This document shows positions 27,601-60,041 of a DNA stretch of 64,000 nt, in pieces. Position 1 is the first letter of the stretch; each line of letters opens with the position of its first letter. The notes beneath the pieces are model-generated. The model was not told the origin of the DNA and did no database searches. It was given only the letters and a program-made list of their open reading frames with translations. The stretch is from an uncultured Acidimicrobiaceae bacterium (GTDB taxonomy: Bacteria; Actinomycetota; Acidimicrobiia; Acidimicrobiales; RAAP-2). Position numbers and translations under genes: made by a program. Location of the stretch: positions 35,731 through 99,730 of the forward strand of contig CAWFQI010000005.1 of the NCBI GenBank assembly GCA_963817985.1. Direction: 5' to 3'.

Positions 27601-28719
27601 TCACCGCGGGGAGGCGGCTTGGGACCCAACCGGTGCGGTAAGAAGTGGGAGGTCGGGTAAGGGTCCGATCAGCCACAGATGCTCCCGGTTGGCGGTCCAA
27701 CGGTCCAGCAGCCGGGAACCCGCGACGTAGACGAATGCCGCGTACGACCAGCCTACGAACTCGTCGATCACGAAGTGCTCACCGGTATAGACCAACGTGA
27801 ATGCCATGGCCACCACGTACGAGACCAAGACAGCCCGGACCCGAGGACCGGACCGCCCCCAGAAGAACAGGAGCAGAAGCATGGGATACGCGGCGTGCAG
27901 TGAGGGCATGGCGGCGATGTTGTTGTCGAATTCGTTGCCCCCAGTAAAGAGGGCGGCAGCACCGTGGATCCCGACGTGGTTCCACATGACCGGAATGATC
28001 CGGGTGATCGGCGCGATGTGATGCGTCTCGCTAGCCAGCCATGGCGGCATGGCTGGATAGAGGACATAGGTGAGATATCCGAGAAACGTCAGGGACACGA
28101 ACAGAAACATGTAGCGACGGAACTCGAGGTGGTCACGCCTCCACAGAATGGCCAAAACGACGAAACTGACGAAGAAGTGGCTCATATACACAATCCAGGC
28201 TGCATAGTCCCAGACGTGGAGGTTGTTGGGATTGAACAACCACCGCTGGAGCGTCACGGTTGGCACCCTGCCGTCGCCGATGATCGTGTCGAAGGCCACC
28301 TGAGGGCGGACGAATGGTCCCCACAACACGCGACTGGCGTAACCACGGAGCAACGCGTAGAAGCTGAGGACGAGGTAGAAGGGCAACCAATCCCGCAAGA
28401 CACCCATCTTCGACCGGTCCGAGTTGCCCAGGCAGGATACGAACAGGACGGCCGTGAGCCACAGAAGGATGTCGTCCTCACTGTAGGGAACGCCGAGGAA
28501 GGCTACGTAGAGGACGAACGCCACCGCCAAGACCGACCAGCCGATCACCAGTCGCTGGCGTGGAGTCAGCTTGCTCACAAGTGGTCGGCCGCGTCCAAGA
28601 TCAATGGTGTTGGCCGGATCGTCGAGAGCGAGACCCGGAGACGAACTCCTGGCTCGACCGGTCTGGGCGGCCGAGTCCGACAGGTTGGCTGTCGGCGGCG
28701 GGTCAGCACTCTCGCTCAT
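27601..28719 (-). CDS. PAP2_3-type membrane protein (inositol-phosphorylceramide-synthase/Aur1-like phosphotransferase fold)
   Basis: Polytopic. The C-terminal motif region ...AAMPSLHAAYPMLLLLFF...YTGEHFVIDE... matches the PAP2 C-terminal family. Confidence 0.6.
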   Translation of the reverse strand: MSESADPPPTANLSDSAAQTGRARSSSPGLALDDPANTIDLGRGRPLVSKLTPRQRLVIGWSVLAVAFVLYVAFLGVPYSEDDILLWLTAVLFVSCLGNSDRSKMGVLRDWLPFYLVLSFYALLRGYASRVLWGPFVRPQVAFDTIIGDGRVPTVTLQRWLFNPNNLHVWDYAAWIVYMSHFFVSFVVLAILWRRDHLEFRRYMFLFVSLTFLGYLTYVLYPAMPPWLASETHHIAPITRIIPVMWNHVGIHGAAALFTGGNEFDNNIAAMPSLHAAYPMLLLLFFWGRSGPRVRAVLVSYVVAMAFTLVYTGEHFVIDEFVGWSYAAFVYVAGSRLLDRWTANREHLWLIGPLPDLPLLTAPVGSQAASPR

Positions 28720-28871
28720 TCGACTCCCGCCTCCGGCGTTTCCCTAGTAAAGTAATAGATCTTATCGTGATTCGTGACTCCCCACCAAACCTGGCCGGGC
28801 ATCACGCCGTTGTTCTCGACCGAGCGGCTCGGGGCGGAATCGGTTCCCGAGCACGCCGGGGAGCTCACACG

Positions 28872-30506
28872 GTGGCCCGGAAGTGGTCAGAAATACTGTT
28901 GGTAGCTGTCGCAATCTGTTTCATCGCCCTCGGTCTCCATGAAGCGTTGTCCGATGCCCCCACCTTCGACGAGCCAGTGTACGTAGCTTCAGGTTTGGCC
29001 GGCATCCTCCACCACGACGTCAACCTCAACGACGAGCACCCTCCGCTTCCGAAATTATTGGCGGCGCTACCCGTTCTGCTCGTCCATCCGGTGATCCCGA
29101 TGGACGGGAACTGGACGAGCAACAACGAACGCACCTACAGCGCGACATTCCTCCAGGCCCAACTGCGGGCCGGCAAGCTCCAATCCGTTACGTTCGCTTC
29201 GCGCCTGGTACCCCTGGTTGAAGTGGTGGCGCTGGCTTTCGTGCTCCGCTCTATCGGTCGTGACCTGTTCGGGCGGGTCGCAGGGACGGTGGCCGGGCTC
29301 TTGTGGCTGCTGTCACCGTTCGTCCTCGGGCTCGGCCATCTGGACTCGATGGATATCGCGTTCGCGCTCGCCGTGGGGTTCTGGGCTTGGGCCCTGTTGA
29401 GATGGACCAGGCACCCTGGCACAGGCACCGCCGCAGTGGCCGGTCTCGCCTCAGGGCTTGCTGTCCTCTCCGACGTCACCGGCCTACTGCTAGCCGGCCT
29501 CGCAGGTCTGGCCATTGCTGGCATCGGGTGGCGCCGATCGGGCCGTAGCGGCATCTATCAGTCGATCGCCGCTCTGGCGGTCGCCTGGGCTTCGGTATGG
29601 ATCGTCTACGCCATAGTGGATTTTCACACCCTCGTGGTGCCGACAGTGATTCTCCCGTTGCCCTACCTGCACGGCCTGAGTTACCTGGCTCACAACGACA
29701 CCATCCCCGGTCCTGGCTACCTGCTCGGACAGGCATGGACAGGTGGTCGCTGGTGGTACTGGCCCGGGAGCCTGTTGGTCAAGACCGTGCCCACCACCTT
29801 GCTCTTCTTGGTTATCGGACCGATCGCCATTCTGTTCACCGAGCGGTCCACCCGCTGGCGGGCCGGACTGGTGCTGGTGCTTCCCGCCGCCCTACTACTC
29901 GGATTCACGCTGTTCACACCCCGGGACATCGGGCTCCGATACCTGCTTCCGGTTGTCGCCTTGGGGTTAGTGGCAGCGAGCTCCATCGTCTCGGTGGCCC
30001 GTCAACACGTGGTCGGCTCGGTTCTCCTTGTCGTGGTCGTAGCCGTGGCTGGTCTGGCTACCGCCTTGTCCGTTCCTGAGTCGCTCTCCTGGGTGAGCCC
30101 CCCATTCGCCCCCGGCTACCGCGCCGTCACCAACTCGGACGTTGACTGGGGTCAGGGGCTCTACCAACTGCAGAGTTGGGCGCGAGGAAAGCACCCCTGG
30201 GTGGCGTACTTCGGCCCGCGTGGCATAGGAGTCGGCGACGTTCCTGGTGCCCGCCCGCTCATTGGTACGGCGCCGGCCCGGATCAGGGGCTGGGTCGCCG
30301 TATCGGACACCGATCTGACAAGCGCCAACTCCCAGCCGCTTGCCTGGCTGCGCAGCTACTGCCCGGTAGGTCAGCTCGGGGGATCCGTCCTCGTGTACCG
30401 ATTTGACCATCAGCCGACCGGCCGTCCTGGTCCCACGGTTCCTGAAGCCGAGTGCCCCCACTCGAAAGACCACTTCAGCTTCGATGCCTCCGCAGCACGA
30501 GCCTGA
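28872..30506 (+). CDS. GT-C fold (ArnT/PMT-like, family 39-type) polyprenyl-phosphate-dependent glycosyltransferase
   Basis: I placed the start at GTG 28872 (VARKWSEILLVAV...). An early loop DEPVYVASG, more than 10 TM helices and a C-terminal soluble domain. The ORF track start 28560 overlaps the divergent gene. Confidence 0.65.
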   Translation: MARKWSEILLVAVAICFIALGLHEALSDAPTFDEPVYVASGLAGILHHDVNLNDEHPPLPKLLAALPVLLVHPVIPMDGNWTSNNERTYSATFLQAQLRAGKLQSVTFASRLVPLVEVVALAFVLRSIGRDLFGRVAGTVAGLLWLLSPFVLGLGHLDSMDIAFALAVGFWAWALLRWTRHPGTGTAAVAGLASGLAVLSDVTGLLLAGLAGLAIAGIGWRRSGRSGIYQSIAALAVAWASVWIVYAIVDFHTLVVPTVILPLPYLHGLSYLAHNDTIPGPGYLLGQAWTGGRWWYWPGSLLVKTVPTTLLFLVIGPIAILFTERSTRWRAGLVLVLPAALLLGFTLFTPRDIGLRYLLPVVALGLVAASSIVSVARQHVVGSVLLVVVVAVAGLATALSVPESLSWVSPPFAPGYRAVTNSDVDWGQGLYQLQSWARGKHPWVAYFGPRGIGVGDVPGARPLIGTAPARIRGWVAVSDTDLTSANSQPLAWLRSYCPVGQLGGSVLVYRFDHQPTGRPGPTVPEAECPHSKDHFSFDASAARA

Positions 30507-40148: not shown

Positions 40149-40619
40149 TCAGCCTGCCTCGGGCTGGTACAGCGCCGACATCGCCTCTCTGAGGCCGGAA
40201 CCCACGATCTCGATCCGAACCCCGAGGCCGTTGCGGTGGTAGGAAAACGACACGGGCGCCTGATCACCGGCGCGCCCGCAGAGCTGCAGAGGACACCCCG
40301 ATCCGGCCAGGCGGGCCCCGTCGACCTCCAAGTCCTCGCTCCAGACCCCGATGTGGTGGAGATTCGAGGACTCATTGCAGACCCAGAGTGACCCTGGGAC
40401 CTCCTCGATCAGCTCGAGATGGGGATCGTCTGTCGAGTAGCACATCGTGGTGGGCAGCTCGACATCGTTACCGGCGGCATCGCGGTAGGCAACGCTGTCG
40501 AGGTGGAGTGTCGGTCCCCAGGTCACGCCCAGCTGCTCACTCAACTCCACCTGTGCTGCGGGTAGGTCCGGCACCACGATCCCGACGTGGAAGTACGGCA
40601 CCAGCGGTTTCGGGCTCAT
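40149..40619 (-). CDS. VOC family protein (glyoxalase-like)
   Basis: N-terminus ...FHVGIVVPDLPAAQVELSEQLG... and a second module with HHIGVW. Confidence 0.75.
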   Translation of the reverse strand: MSPKPLVPYFHVGIVVPDLPAAQVELSEQLGVTWGPTLHLDSVAYRDAAGNDVELPTTMCYSTDDPHLELIEEVPGSLWVCNESSNLHHIGVWSEDLEVDGARLAGSGCPLQLCGRAGDQAPVSFSYHRNGLGVRIEIVGSGLREAMSALYQPEAG

Positions 40620-40835
40620 CGGCTACACCCAGGAGCGATCACGGGTACCTCGCACAAGGACCGAGGGGACCATCTGGGATCCGAAGGAGCGGATGACACC
40701 GTGTTTGACCGAGCAGGCACCGCCGCTCACGGTACTCGCTGCCCGCACGACACGACGGCGACTCGGGCGTCGCCGCAAAACGGGGTTCCTCAGTGTGCGT
40801 GGCGGGACCGACGAGTCGGGAAGTACAATGAACTC

Positions 40836-40901
40836 GTGCGTTCTTATTGGTGGTTTAACGGGCCGGCCCAGGACGGGCCTCGGAGCGGCATCCCGCACTG
40901 A
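40836..40901 (+). CDS. Aromatic-rich leader peptide (21 aa, VRSYWWFNGPAQDGPRSGIPH)
   Basis: GTG 40836. Consecutive TAT-TGG-TGG-TTT codons at 40845-40856. Stop TGA 40899-40901. Followed by a terminator hairpin and then the DAHP synthase gene. Confidence 0.55.
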   Translation: MRSYWWFNGPAQDGPRSGIPH

Positions 40902-40927
40902 GCGCACACCCATCCAGGACCGGCTCC

Positions 40928-40962
40928 AAGGCAGAGGCTCACCGCCTCTGCCTTTTGCTTTG
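40928..40962 (+). terminator. Intrinsic terminator (attenuator) upstream of DAHP synthase
   Basis: AAGGCAGAGGC (40928-40938), loop tcacc, then GCCTCTGCCTT (40944-40954). The T-tract TTTTGCTTT (40953-40961) begins within the last two stem bases. The stem is 9 bp of perfect G/C-rich pairing plus 2 A-T pairs. Confidence 0.7.
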
Positions 40963-41054
40963 CCCCTTATCAAGGCAAGCCGGTCACCTCCCGGGTCGAT
41001 CGGATTGCGGGAAGGAACATCGTGGTACCAGGCATTACCGCACACGGGTGGCGG

Positions 41055-42131
41055 ATGACCGAACGTCGCCCACTCGTCTTACCGGGGGATGTGCGTGGCG
41101 CGCTGCCCATCGGGCCTCGTAGCCACGCGGTCGTCCAGGCCGCCCGGCGATCGGCCGCCTCGATCCTGCACGGCACCGACGACCGCTTACTGGTCATCGT
41201 CGGTCCCTGCTCGATCCATGATCCGGTGGCGGCGCTCGACTACGCACGACGGCTGTCCGACGTCGCCCACGACCTCGCCGACGAGCTCGTGATCGTGATG
41301 CGCACCTACTTCGAGAAACCGCGCACCACGGTGGGCTGGAAAGGACTCCTCACCGATCCGGGGATGGACGATACGTACCTCGTCAACGAGGGGATCGTGG
41401 CCGCGCGCCATCTCCTCATGGACATTCTCGACATGGGACTTGCGGTTGGGGGCGAGTTCGTCGATCCCCTGGCGGCGCCATTCCTCGCTGACGCCATGAG
41501 TTGGGGATCAGTAGGGGCACGAACCTCACAGAGCCCGATTCACCGCCAGCTGGCCAGCGCCCTGCCCATGCCCATCGGCTTCAAGAACGCCACCAGCGGC
41601 GAGGTGGGCGTGGCCATCGACGCAGCGCGGGCCGCAGCGATTCCACAGCTCGCCCTCAGCCTCACCGACGAAGGTCGGGCCGCCACCTTCGACACGGCCG
41701 GAAACCCGGACGGACACGTGGTGCTTCGGGGTGGCAGCGGTGGCCCCAACTTCGATGCTGCCACCGTTGAGCACACGCACTCCACCATGGTCAGTGCGGG
41801 CCTGGCCGGCGGTGTGATCATCGACGCCAGCCACGACAACAGCGGAAAGGACCACCGGAAGCAGACCACCGTGGCCGCCCAGGTCTCTGCGGCCGTAGCC
41901 CGGGCTGAACCTGGGTTCGCCGGAATCATGCTCGAGAGCTTTCTCGTCGCCGGCCGACAGAGCGCCCTACCGGGCCGACCAACGGCTCTGACCTTCGGAC
42001 AGAGTGTCACCGACGCCTGCATGGGCTGGGAGGACACGACCGCCACCCTCGAGCGGTTGGCTCGTGCCGCGGTCATGCGTCGACGAGCCAAATCGGGCCG
42101 GGCTCCGGTCACCTGTGCGGTGGCCCACTGA
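41055..42131 (+). CDS. 3-deoxy-7-phosphoheptulonate (DAHP) synthase, class I (AroF/G/H type)
   Basis: ...GTDDRLLVIVGPCSIHDP...YFEKPRTTVGWKGL...DP... matches E. coli AroG-type signatures. Start at ATG 41055 or GTG 41022. Confidence 0.9.
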   Translation: MTERRPLVLPGDVRGALPIGPRSHAVVQAARRSAASILHGTDDRLLVIVGPCSIHDPVAALDYARRLSDVAHDLADELVIVMRTYFEKPRTTVGWKGLLTDPGMDDTYLVNEGIVAARHLLMDILDMGLAVGGEFVDPLAAPFLADAMSWGSVGARTSQSPIHRQLASALPMPIGFKNATSGEVGVAIDAARAAAIPQLALSLTDEGRAATFDTAGNPDGHVVLRGGSGGPNFDAATVEHTHSTMVSAGLAGGVIIDASHDNSGKDHRKQTTVAAQVSAAVARAEPGFAGIMLESFLVAGRQSALPGRPTALTFGQSVTDACMGWEDTTATLERLARAAVMRRRAKSGRAPVTCAVAH

Positions 42132-59219: not shown

Positions 59220-60041
59220 GTGCAGCTAGTCACCCTGGGTACCGGCAGTCCGATCCCCGACGCCGCCCGGGCCGGTCCGGCCACGCTGGTGCGGGCCGGC
59301 GGGCGCGACTTCCTCTTCGACTGCGGGCGAGGCGTCCTGATGCGGGCGGCCGCGGCGGGAACGGGCCCGGCGATGTTCGCCGCGGTGCTCCTCACCCATC
59401 TGCACAGCGACCACACCACAGACCTCAACGACGTCATCACCATGCGGTGGGTCGCCTCACTCGAGCCCAACCCGCTCCCGCTGATAGGCCCCGACGGGAC
59501 CCGGGGACTGGCCGATCGGACCTTGGCCATGCTGTCCGACGACATCGGCTACCGGGTCTCCCACCACGACGACCTGAACTGGGAGCCGACCTGCTCGGTG
59601 ACCGAGGTCGGTGACGGGGTGGCCTATGACGACGGCACGGTCCGCATCACCGCCGCCCCCACCGACCACGCCCCCGTCCACCCGACGGTGGGCTACCGGA
59701 TCGAAGCGGAGGGAAAGGTGGTGGTGGTGGCGGGCGACACGGTGCCCTGCGAGGGCCTCGACCGCCTCTGTGCCGGCGCCGACGTCTATGTGCAGACCGT
59801 CATCCGCCGGTCCCTGATCGAGCCCATCCCCTTCGCCCGGCTCCAGGACATCCTCGACTACCACTCGTCCATCACCGATGCCGCCGCCACCGCGTCGCGG
59901 GCCGGCGTCGGCACGCTGGTGCTGACCCACCTGGTCCCCGCCCCCGCTCCGGGCTCGGAGCCGGAGTGGGCGGCCGAGGCGCGGGAGGGGTTCGACGGCA
60001 CGGTGGTCGTGGCCCACGATCTGTGGCAGCTCGACCTGTGA
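59220..60041 (+). CDS. MBL-fold metallo-hydrolase (RNase Z/ElaC-like)
   Basis: LLTHLHSDHTTDL (HxHxDH) and downstream His/Asp ligands. GTG start. Confidence 0.8.
   Translation: MQLVTLGTGSPIPDAARAGPATLVRAGGRDFLFDCGRGVLMRAAAAGTGPAMFAAVLLTHLHSDHTTDLNDVITMRWVASLEPNPLPLIGPDGTRGLADRTLAMLSDDIGYRVSHHDDLNWEPTCSVTEVGDGVAYDDGTVRITAAPTDHAPVHPTVGYRIEAEGKVVVVAGDTVPCEGLDRLCAGADVYVQTVIRRSLIEPIPFARLQDILDYHSSITDAAATASRAGVGTLVLTHLVPAPAPGSEPEWAAEAREGFDGTVVVAHDLWQLDL

Follow-up and report, generated by a model that had tools for sequence, protein, structure and literature searches.

3-Deoxy-7-phosphoheptulonate (DAHP) synthase catalyzes the committed step of carbon flow into the shikimate pathway, and the locus analyzed here raises the question of how the supply of aromatic amino acids might be sensed in front of its gene. 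The locus lies in a stretch of 64,000 nucleotides (nt) of contig CAWFQI010000005.1 from an uncultured Acidimicrobiaceae bacterium (below, the window means this whole stretch), where a class I DAHP synthase gene is preceded by a short leader open reading frame (ORF) with consecutive Tyr, Trp, Trp, and Phe codons and by a terminator-like hairpin. We suggest, with a probability of about 0.5, that ribosome stalling in the 5' leader of the DAHP synthase mRNA reports on the charging of the tRNAs for Tyr, Trp, and Phe, and that the stall is transmitted by a relay of four RNA segments with a terminator nested in it. The regulated step would be translation initiation, transcriptional read-through, or both; the stalling, the leaderless start of the mRNA, and the direction of regulation are predicted from sequence comparison and folding models.

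The leader ORF starts with GTG at 40836, ends with TGA at 40899-40901, 120 nt upstream of the DAHP synthase start, and encodes VRSYWWFNGPAQDGPRSGIPH. This ORF, its codons TAT TGG TGG TTT, and the downstream hairpin had been reported in the initial annotation of this DNA, and all their coordinates and sequences proved exact. The aromatic codons do lie in an AT-richer patch, as claimed there, with a G+C content of 42% versus 65% in the window. In the 26 aligned leaders TAT and TTT never vary, and both are the rare synonyms in the window, where TAT occurs 43 times versus 145 for TAC, and TTT 32 times versus 289 for TTC. In nearly all leaders of the family Tyr, Trp, and Phe are each encoded at least once; L081 (relatives' loci are denoted by L numbers) departs from this, as its HWWF motif is without Tyr. 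Runs of at least four aromatic codons occur three times in the six frames of the window, compared with 0.57 +/- 0.8 in shuffled sequences. Two of them were rejected as leader peptides: the WWWW run at 59719-59730 (+) is an out-of-frame reading of GGTGGTGGTGG within a 273-aa gene (ORF 59220-60041), and the WWYW run at 29751-29762 (+) is in frame within a 682-aa ORF (28458-30506). Since both of these lie inside genes, the Tyr-Trp-Trp-Phe run is the sole intergenic one in the window.

Loci of relatives, 80 genomic and 80 metagenomic, were fetched with the DAHP synthase protein. The nearest are metagenome-assembled genomes of Acidimicrobiaceae and other Acidimicrobiales with DAHP synthases only 52-65% identical to that of the window, and the leader DNA is approximately 90% identical in the two closest relatives. 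Alignment of the regions upstream of the DAHP synthase orthologs bears the element out: the upstream ORF, the aromatic codons, and the hairpin are conserved, and the stems covary. The leader ORF, the spacing of a -10-like box, the hairpin, and the segments named r1, r2, and r5 (Table 1) are kept in eight Acidimicrobiia loci; in all eight leaders the ORF has 21 codons and zero indels, with indels of 1, 2, and 5 nt occurring just past the stop codon. The peptides of this clade include VSTYWWFDQPALEGPRSVIPH, VRSYRWFDQ…, VRCYWWFDEPARDGRRGVTTH, VRCHWWFDE…, and VRLYWWFAEP…. In Micromonosporaceae and other Actinomycetota, relaxed scans identified class I DAHP synthase genes preceded by homologous leaders, with ORFs of 19-29 codons and peptides such as M.RWYWRFGLALGEPAA.R, VTRWYACFSWPALAPATEA, VTRSYLWFSQPALGAGDSAMT, and VVRRYWRFTLALGGAGGRLR. 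The same architecture was found in at least 40 loci of these groups, and the frame, length, and aromatic codons of the ORF are conserved in more than 30 relatives.

A covariance model (R1) built from 26 leaders, with the r1:r2 helix and the hairpin as its structure, recovers further Micromonosporaceae loci at 72-107 bits. It also detects leaders that had been left out of the model, namely those of Tsukamurella paurometabola (L163 1014-1203, 64 bits, E 4e-14, peptide VGMNAYWRFTEAPGGAGGDARMRG) and Mycobacterium avium (L165 990-1203, 51 bits, E 8e-11, peptide VNIGVRAYWRFIEAPGGAGDEASG), both of which precede a class I DAHP synthase gene and contain canonical terminators. Given this conservation in relatives, the arrangement of leader ORF and hairpin is not due to chance. 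A search of Rfam with the entire window yielded zero matches at the gathering thresholds, and with 40300-41400 at E values up to 10 the best match was an unrelated long non-coding RNA model at 18 bits. No aro leader was found in Seliverstov 2005 (PMC1262725) or in the S. lividans reannotation (PMC8079986), and no YWRF or YWWF peptide in the supplements of Shell 2015; within the searchable literature, such an aromatic leader of a DAHP synthase gene is described only for Corynebacterium glutamicum (Phe-Tyr-Phe). The leader family is uncatalogued, absent from Rfam, and phylum-wide in Actinomycetota, where it covers Acidimicrobiia, Micromonosporaceae, and Mycobacteriales.

The hairpin between the leader ORF and the gene has the core GGCAGAGGC-TCACC-GCCTCTGCC at 40930-40952, which extends to AAGGCAGAGGC/GCCTCTGCCTT and is followed by TTGCTTTGCC. 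A terminator scan reports 11 pairs, seven of them G-C, and a 5-nt loop; the predicted folding energy is -20.3 kcal/mol, and the tail reads UUUUGCUUUG. None of 200 dinucleotide shuffles of the 140-nt region folds as well as the region itself (z = -3.1). In 28 leaders 97.8% of cells of the hairpin are paired, with compensatory changes at 6 of the 11 pairs; slid controls for the covarying helices, this one included, lie at 27-53%. U-rich tails are kept in most family members despite a G+C content of 60-68%, being weak in L102 and L117 and absent in L005. This element is predicted to be a canonical-looking intrinsic terminator. It ends 67 nt before the annotated GTG of the DAHP synthase gene at 41022, rather than the approximately 90 nt given initially.

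Two further helices share the strand r2, which can pair either with r1, beginning shortly after the aromatic codons, or with r5, a near-copy of r1 located 24 nt beyond the terminator hairpin. The r1:r2 helix is paired in 91% of cells in the 28 leaders, with 7 of 12 pairs compensatory and slid controls at 28-53%; for r2:r5 the values are 88%, 4 of 8 pairs, and 27-53%. The three strands change jointly between clades (CCGG/CCGG/CCGG versus CTGG/CCAG/CTGG for r1/r2/r5). Cognate duplexes are on average more stable than non-cognate ones, both for r1:r2 (-27.4 versus -20.6 kcal/mol) and for r2:r5 (-22.1 versus -18.5 kcal/mol), at a permutation p of ~5e-5 that ignores relatedness. Thus r1:r2, the terminator hairpin, and r2:r5 covary and are conserved in the aligned leaders. 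In the window the r2:r5 duplex has a predicted energy of -18.1 kcal/mol, and the 68-nt hairpin closed by r1:r2 (40860-40927) has -37.1 kcal/mol, its inner part folded alone having -18.6; the sequence of its apical part differs among clades. A fourth segment, r6, can pair with r5 in a hairpin of -17.8 kcal/mol. In nine Acidimicrobiia leaders r5:r6 is paired in 91.9% of cells with two compensatory pairs, the slid controls of 24-39% having been computed for a tested structure that combines r5:r6 with a second helix.

The link between the codons and the helices is the position of r1. A ribosome stalled on the aromatic codons is predicted to cover approximately 40860-40870, which agrees with the footprint proposed in the initial annotation and coincides with the conserved r1. 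When r1 is masked, all 13 leaders that were folded are predicted to exchange r1:r2 for r2:r5, and the two global states of the window are near-isoenergetic (-89.5 versus -88.8 kcal/mol). Covariation, conservation, and constrained folding together point to a relay in which the pairings 1:2 and 3:4 alternate with 2:3, with segment 1 in the footprint of the stalled ribosome.

We propose the following mechanism. Transcription would begin at the leader GTG and give a leaderless mRNA. When aromatic amino acids are plentiful, the ribosome would pass TAT-TGG-TGG-TTT and exit at the stop codon, which lies in the long hairpin; r1 would pair with r2, and the terminator with its U-tract would end most transcripts. 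In the RNA that is read through under these conditions, r5 would pair with r6 in a helix abutting the Shine-Dalgarno (SD) sequence of the DAHP synthase gene. When an aromatic tRNA is scarce, the ribosome would stall on the aromatic codons and cover r1, and the freed r2 could capture r5 once it is made. Formation of r2:r5 would release r6, remodel the translation-initiation region, and give more DAHP synthase. The relay would therefore consist of r1:r2 and r5:r6 alternating with r2:r5, as in ermC or the mycobacterial poly-Cys leaders, with the terminator placed in the loop as a leaky stop and perhaps also as a pause that times the decision.

Table 1. Features of the DAHP synthase leader and gene (positions in the window)
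Feature	Coordinates	Strand	Remarks
-10-like hexamer TACAAT	40824..40829	+	6 nt 5' of leader GTG
Leader ORF (aroR-like), 21 codons + stop	40836..40901	+	encodes VRSYWWFNGPAQDGPRSGIPH
Candidate sensor codons TAT TGG TGG TTT (Tyr-Trp-Trp-Phe)	40845..40856	+	
r1 (GGGCCGGCCC), 5' strand of long hairpin	40860..40869	+	begins 4 nt past last aromatic codon
Apical part of long hairpin	40870..40916	+	holds leader stop codon (40899-40901)
r2 (GGACCGGCTCC), putative switch strand	40917..40927	+	pairs with r1 or r5; adjoins terminator stem
Intrinsic-terminator-like hairpin AAGGCAGAGGC-TCACC-GCCTCTGCCTT (40928-54) with U-rich tail TTGCTTTGCC (40955-64)	40928..40964	+	
Small hairpin GCTTTGCC / GGCAAGC	40957..40980	+	shares part of U-tract; predicted -7.4 kcal/mol
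r5 (AGCCGGTC), near-copy of r1	40978..40985	+	complementary to r2 40918-25
Anti-SD-like CCTCCCG	40987..40993	+	can pair with SD; only in window, L001, L002
r6 (GATCGGATTGC)	40998..41008	+	predicted r5 partner when r1 holds r2; helix ends 1 nt before SD
SD GGGAAGGA of DAHP synthase gene	41009..41016	+	5 nt before GTG 41022
Class I (AroF/G/H-type) DAHP synthase, 369 aa	41022..42131	+	TIGR00034 415 bits, PRK12755 429 bits

The first step of this scheme rests on the promoter-like box. In 29 of the 29 leaders with spacing examined, a TAnnnT hexamer precedes the leader start codon by 6-8 nt, and the same spacing occurs in Tsukamurella, M. avium, and the C. glutamicum-type locus; among the Acidimicrobiia leaders this hexamer, 6-7 nt away, is the only conserved element upstream of GTG. 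Because of this position of the box, the leader mRNA is probably leaderless, with transcription starting near 40836. Leader peptides of actinobacteria are usually encoded by leaderless mRNAs (PMC8079986; bioRxiv 10.1101/834739). As a separate observation, the 5'-terminal GUGCGU(U) of the window (40836-40842) is complementary to GCGCAC at 40902-40907, just after the leader stop (ACGCGC in L003). This helix is part of the predicted minimum-energy fold of the r2:r5 state, where it would hide the leaderless start codon.

The initial annotation had read the locus as a classical transcription attenuator of the trp/pheA type, in which a stall at Tyr-Trp-Trp-Phe lets an antiterminator take the 5' arm of the terminator; r2:r5 would then merely stabilize or lock the RNA that has been read through. 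The conserved aromatic leader ORF, the terminator-like hairpin, and the class I gene of that reading all stand, as do the hand-drawn segments themselves (GGCCC 40865-69, GGGCC 40875-79, GCCTCGGAGC 40877-86, GCTCC 40923-27, and GAGGC 40934-38), which are present as given. What failed is the antiterminator formed by GCCTCGGAGC with GCTCC and GAGGC. It is not conserved: it cannot form in L003, L083, L096, L081, L087, or any of the other clades. In all 31 leaders the ascending strand is no more complementary to the terminator 5' arm than shuffled sequences are (z -1.3 in the window, range -1.8 to +1.3), and the complementarity of r2 to the 5' arm, or to the 3' arm with the U-tract, does not exceed the controls (27-31 leaders in the antiterminator tests). 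Folding with ViennaRNA predicts the terminator in all three states modeled: without a ribosome, with one stalled on the aromatic codons, and with one at the stop codon. At -23.9 kcal/mol, the drawn antiterminator is the minimum-energy fold in one case only, the nascent RNA of the window itself when r1 is masked and the RNA has been made no further than the terminator loop; the terminator together with the inner hairpin (-43.3 kcal/mol) far outweighs it, and six bases of the 5' arm stay free to nucleate the terminator. By alignment and folding, the pairings drawn initially are not the conserved switch. The conserved alternative, r2 (40918-25) with r5 (40978-85), lies outside the coordinates considered there, downstream of the terminator, and its covariation is left unexplained by classical attenuation.

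On these grounds we regard a classical attenuator as rather unlikely, although several observations speak for it. Within the window's clade the terminator has a canonical form (11 bp, -20.3 kcal/mol, tail UUUUGCUUUG), and in most members of these 60-68% G+C leaders a U-rich tail is kept behind the covarying stem. The drawn antiterminator also counts here, being optimal in the window's r1-masked nascent RNA. The similar aroR leader of C. glutamicum gives short attenuated transcripts, and a review citing Neshat 2014 reports that aroF mRNA rises when Phe is limiting (PMC4046766; PMC11802643). Among the pairings tested, no RNA competitor of the terminator was detected, a negative of limited weight, as the same folding shows no antiterminator for aroR either. 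The folding negatives thus leave room for regulated termination, because the aroR-type leader behaves alike in the same tests.

Two further observations favor the translational relay: it persists in leaders without a functional-looking terminator, and a second type of aromatic leader pairs its codons with the region preceding the SD sequence. The terminator-less leaders are L048 and L005, which had been left out of model R1 and are recovered by it at 47 and 42 bits. Both keep the relay, and their r5 (CUGGCUCCCGG) overlaps an anti-SD pairing with CCCGGGAGGAG; when r5 is masked in L005, the modeled SD accessibility rises from 0.15 to 0.65. In L048 (2820-2982) the hairpin between r2 and r5 is missing, and L005 (2796-2982) has a 7-bp hairpin without a U-tract. 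By eye, L089 resembles these two, with the contig ending within the leader.

The second type of leader was observed in approximately 55 loci of Solirubrobacterales (L004, L008, L009, and ~52 others). It is a distinct leaderless ORF of the form M.HGTH…RAYFYFWRF[TS]*, situated ~230-250 nt 5' of the match to DAHP synthase (L004 2669-2960, for instance). The codon tract UAUUUCUACUUCUGGCGA pairs over 8 + 8 bp with UCGCCAGACCAGUAGAAA, immediately upstream of the SD sequence of the DAHP synthase gene, and L145 carries a compensating variant of this pairing (UGGUAUUGG / CCAUACCAG). The 15 leaders inspected by eye showed no terminator. From these pairings, the Solirubrobacterales leader looks like a direct translational attenuator, in keeping with the attenuation known from leaderless poly-Cys ORFs of mycobacteria (bioRxiv 10.1101/834739).

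Several points weigh against the proposed relay. The independent compensatory events are few, approximately 3-5 clade-level changes, and the shuffle controls ignore relatedness. Thermodynamic modeling of the window gives an SD accessibility that falls from 0.43 to 0.36 when r5 is sequestered, and the terminator-containing leaders show no consistent gain in modeled accessibility of the SD sequence or the start codon upon this sequestration. Freeing r6 permits the anti-SD:SD hairpin in the window (-12.8 kcal/mol), which naively would lower translation, an effect of the wrong sign. Further, r5 cannot sway the termination decision, since it lies downstream of the terminator. Finally, the C. glutamicum-type aroR has no recognizable r5, yet, according to a review, it gives more aroF transcript when Phe is limiting.

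A further alternative is dual control, in which read-through and translation initiation both respond to the stall. The transcriptional step would be kinetic, for instance by hairpin-dependent pausing or NusA/NusG effects governed by the stacking of r1:r2 on the terminator, and would use no RNA antiterminator. All hairpin-bearing members have r1:r2 next to the terminator stem, no more than ~6 nt away; the terminator, r5, and r6 are conserved together; and the r1:r2 and r2:r5 states are near-isoenergetic, so that timing would decide the outcome. Nevertheless, there is no known precedent for regulation of a terminator by stacking alone, and we consider dual control improbable. Returning to the four-segment relay, a form of it in which the leaderless Tyr/Trp/Phe ORF drives the r1:r2/r2:r5 exchange while the nested terminator works without any RNA antiterminator, being either unregulated or kinetically regulated, is put forward only tentatively.

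The closest precedent is the aroR-aroF attenuator of C. glutamicum with its Phe-Tyr-Phe leader (Mentz 2013, PMC4046766; PMC11802643; PMC7356990); the Corynebacterium precedent named in the initial annotation does exist. An increase of the aroF transcript under Phe limitation is stated in a review (PMC11802643). The C. glutamicum-group locus L161 has the leader MFAARFYFMSGSGAFPRQLAVSRAT, whose position matches the aroR deletion primer of PMC7356990. As in the window, a short ORF with consecutive aromatic codons (…RFYF…) directly precedes an actinobacterial class I DAHP synthase gene, a -10-like box lies 8 nt before the start codon, and an r1:r2 helix (CGGCUCCGG / CCGGAGUCG) abuts an intrinsic terminator. 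Model R1 gives only a weak match to L161 (10.8 bits, E ~0.002 in 451 nt with the filters off), in the right position and register, and none with the default filters. The two leaders differ in their codons, Phe-Tyr-Phe without Trp in aroR versus Tyr-Trp-Trp-Phe in the window, and in that aroR is backed by experiment, whereas the window element is known from sequence. Homology of the window leader family to aroR is probable, and the reading of the window leader as a ribosome-mediated aromatic sensor of the aroR type, which would extend such leaders to Acidimicrobiia with a Tyr-Trp-Trp-Phe sensor, is partly supported by these comparisons.

With the trpL and pheL (pheA) leaders of E. coli, the window shares tandem end-product codons in a short leader ORF, a stop codon located in a hairpin, and an intrinsic terminator ahead of the structural gene. 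The E. coli leaders, however, have a defined 2:3 antiterminator that competes with the terminator, and none is detectable in the window family, where the conserved competitor of r1:r2 lies past the terminator. In addition, the window mRNA is probably leaderless, and one leader would cover all three aromatic amino acids. A further parallel is offered by the ermC and cat relays and the mycobacterial leaderless poly-Cys short ORFs, which are translational attenuators (bioRxiv 10.1101/834739). In these systems, and by our proposal in the window, a stalled ribosome masks segment 1, segment 2 swaps partners, and the initiation region is remodeled. The poly-Cys ORFs share with the window a leader ORF that is leaderless (predicted in the window), and direct pairing of a codon tract with the pre-SD region occurs in the Solirubrobacterales aromatic leaders. 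The window differs from the ermC, cat, and poly-Cys systems in that its predicted off state shows no clear sequestration of the SD sequence and its relay loop encloses a canonical terminator; the signal would be amino-acid supply, not an antibiotic as for ermC and cat.

One could also suppose a structured leader that acts independently of leader translation, for instance as a protein- or metabolite-binding RNA or as a stability element, with incidental aromatic codons. The base of the hairpin (GGCAG…CUGCC) and the r2/r5 sequence are conserved across classes of Actinomycetota, as such an element would have it. We consider it very improbable, given that every member keeps the ORF frame and length, the -10 spacing, and the aromatic codons, and that the indels of the window's clade fall just past the stop codon and none within the ORF. 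Moreover, the unpaired junctions vary between clades, unlike those of riboswitch aptamers, an Rfam match is absent, and the independent Solirubrobacterales type of leader also uses aromatic codons.

If the proposed sensing is true, a single 21-codon sensor of Tyr-, Trp-, and Phe-tRNA charging at the entry to the shikimate pathway would provide an economical global control, in a leader conserved from Acidimicrobiia to M. avium. The nested-terminator relay would then represent a hybrid attenuator architecture undescribed for leaders of the trp/pheA type, and it may also explain aroR. The conserved decoy r5 past the terminator and the lack of a detectable antiterminator make this family a tractable case for studying transcription-translation coupling by leaderless leaders in high-G+C bacteria. 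The family model could be used to annotate such leaders in many actinobacterial genomes, to flag unannotated small ORFs, and to guide deregulation in strains producing aromatic compounds.

The start of the DAHP synthase gene in the public annotation is GTG 41022, and an identical 369-aa product is present in the public protein collection. Its SD sequence GGGAAGGA is conserved in L001, L002, and L087. The protein is a singleton at 90% clustering, and its closest relatives are 65% identical among genomes and 58% among the JGI metagenomes; sampling of the lineage is therefore poor. The nearest metagenome-assembled genomes make a placement in Acidimicrobiia probable. The small hairpin that overlaps the U-tract (40957-40980) is retained in the Acidimicrobiia clade, partly via G-U pairs, and its support is weak.

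Two longer frames across the leader were considered as genes and rejected. The frame of the leader ORF is open upstream to 40587 and could encode 104 aa (40587-40901), but the part 5' of the GTG is unconserved in relatives. Another frame of 121 aa (40693-41058, +) crosses the terminator and is unlikely to be coding, because indels of 1, 2, and 5 nt among the window and its close relatives L001 and L002 break it. This frame stops at a TGA that overlaps the ATG at 41057.

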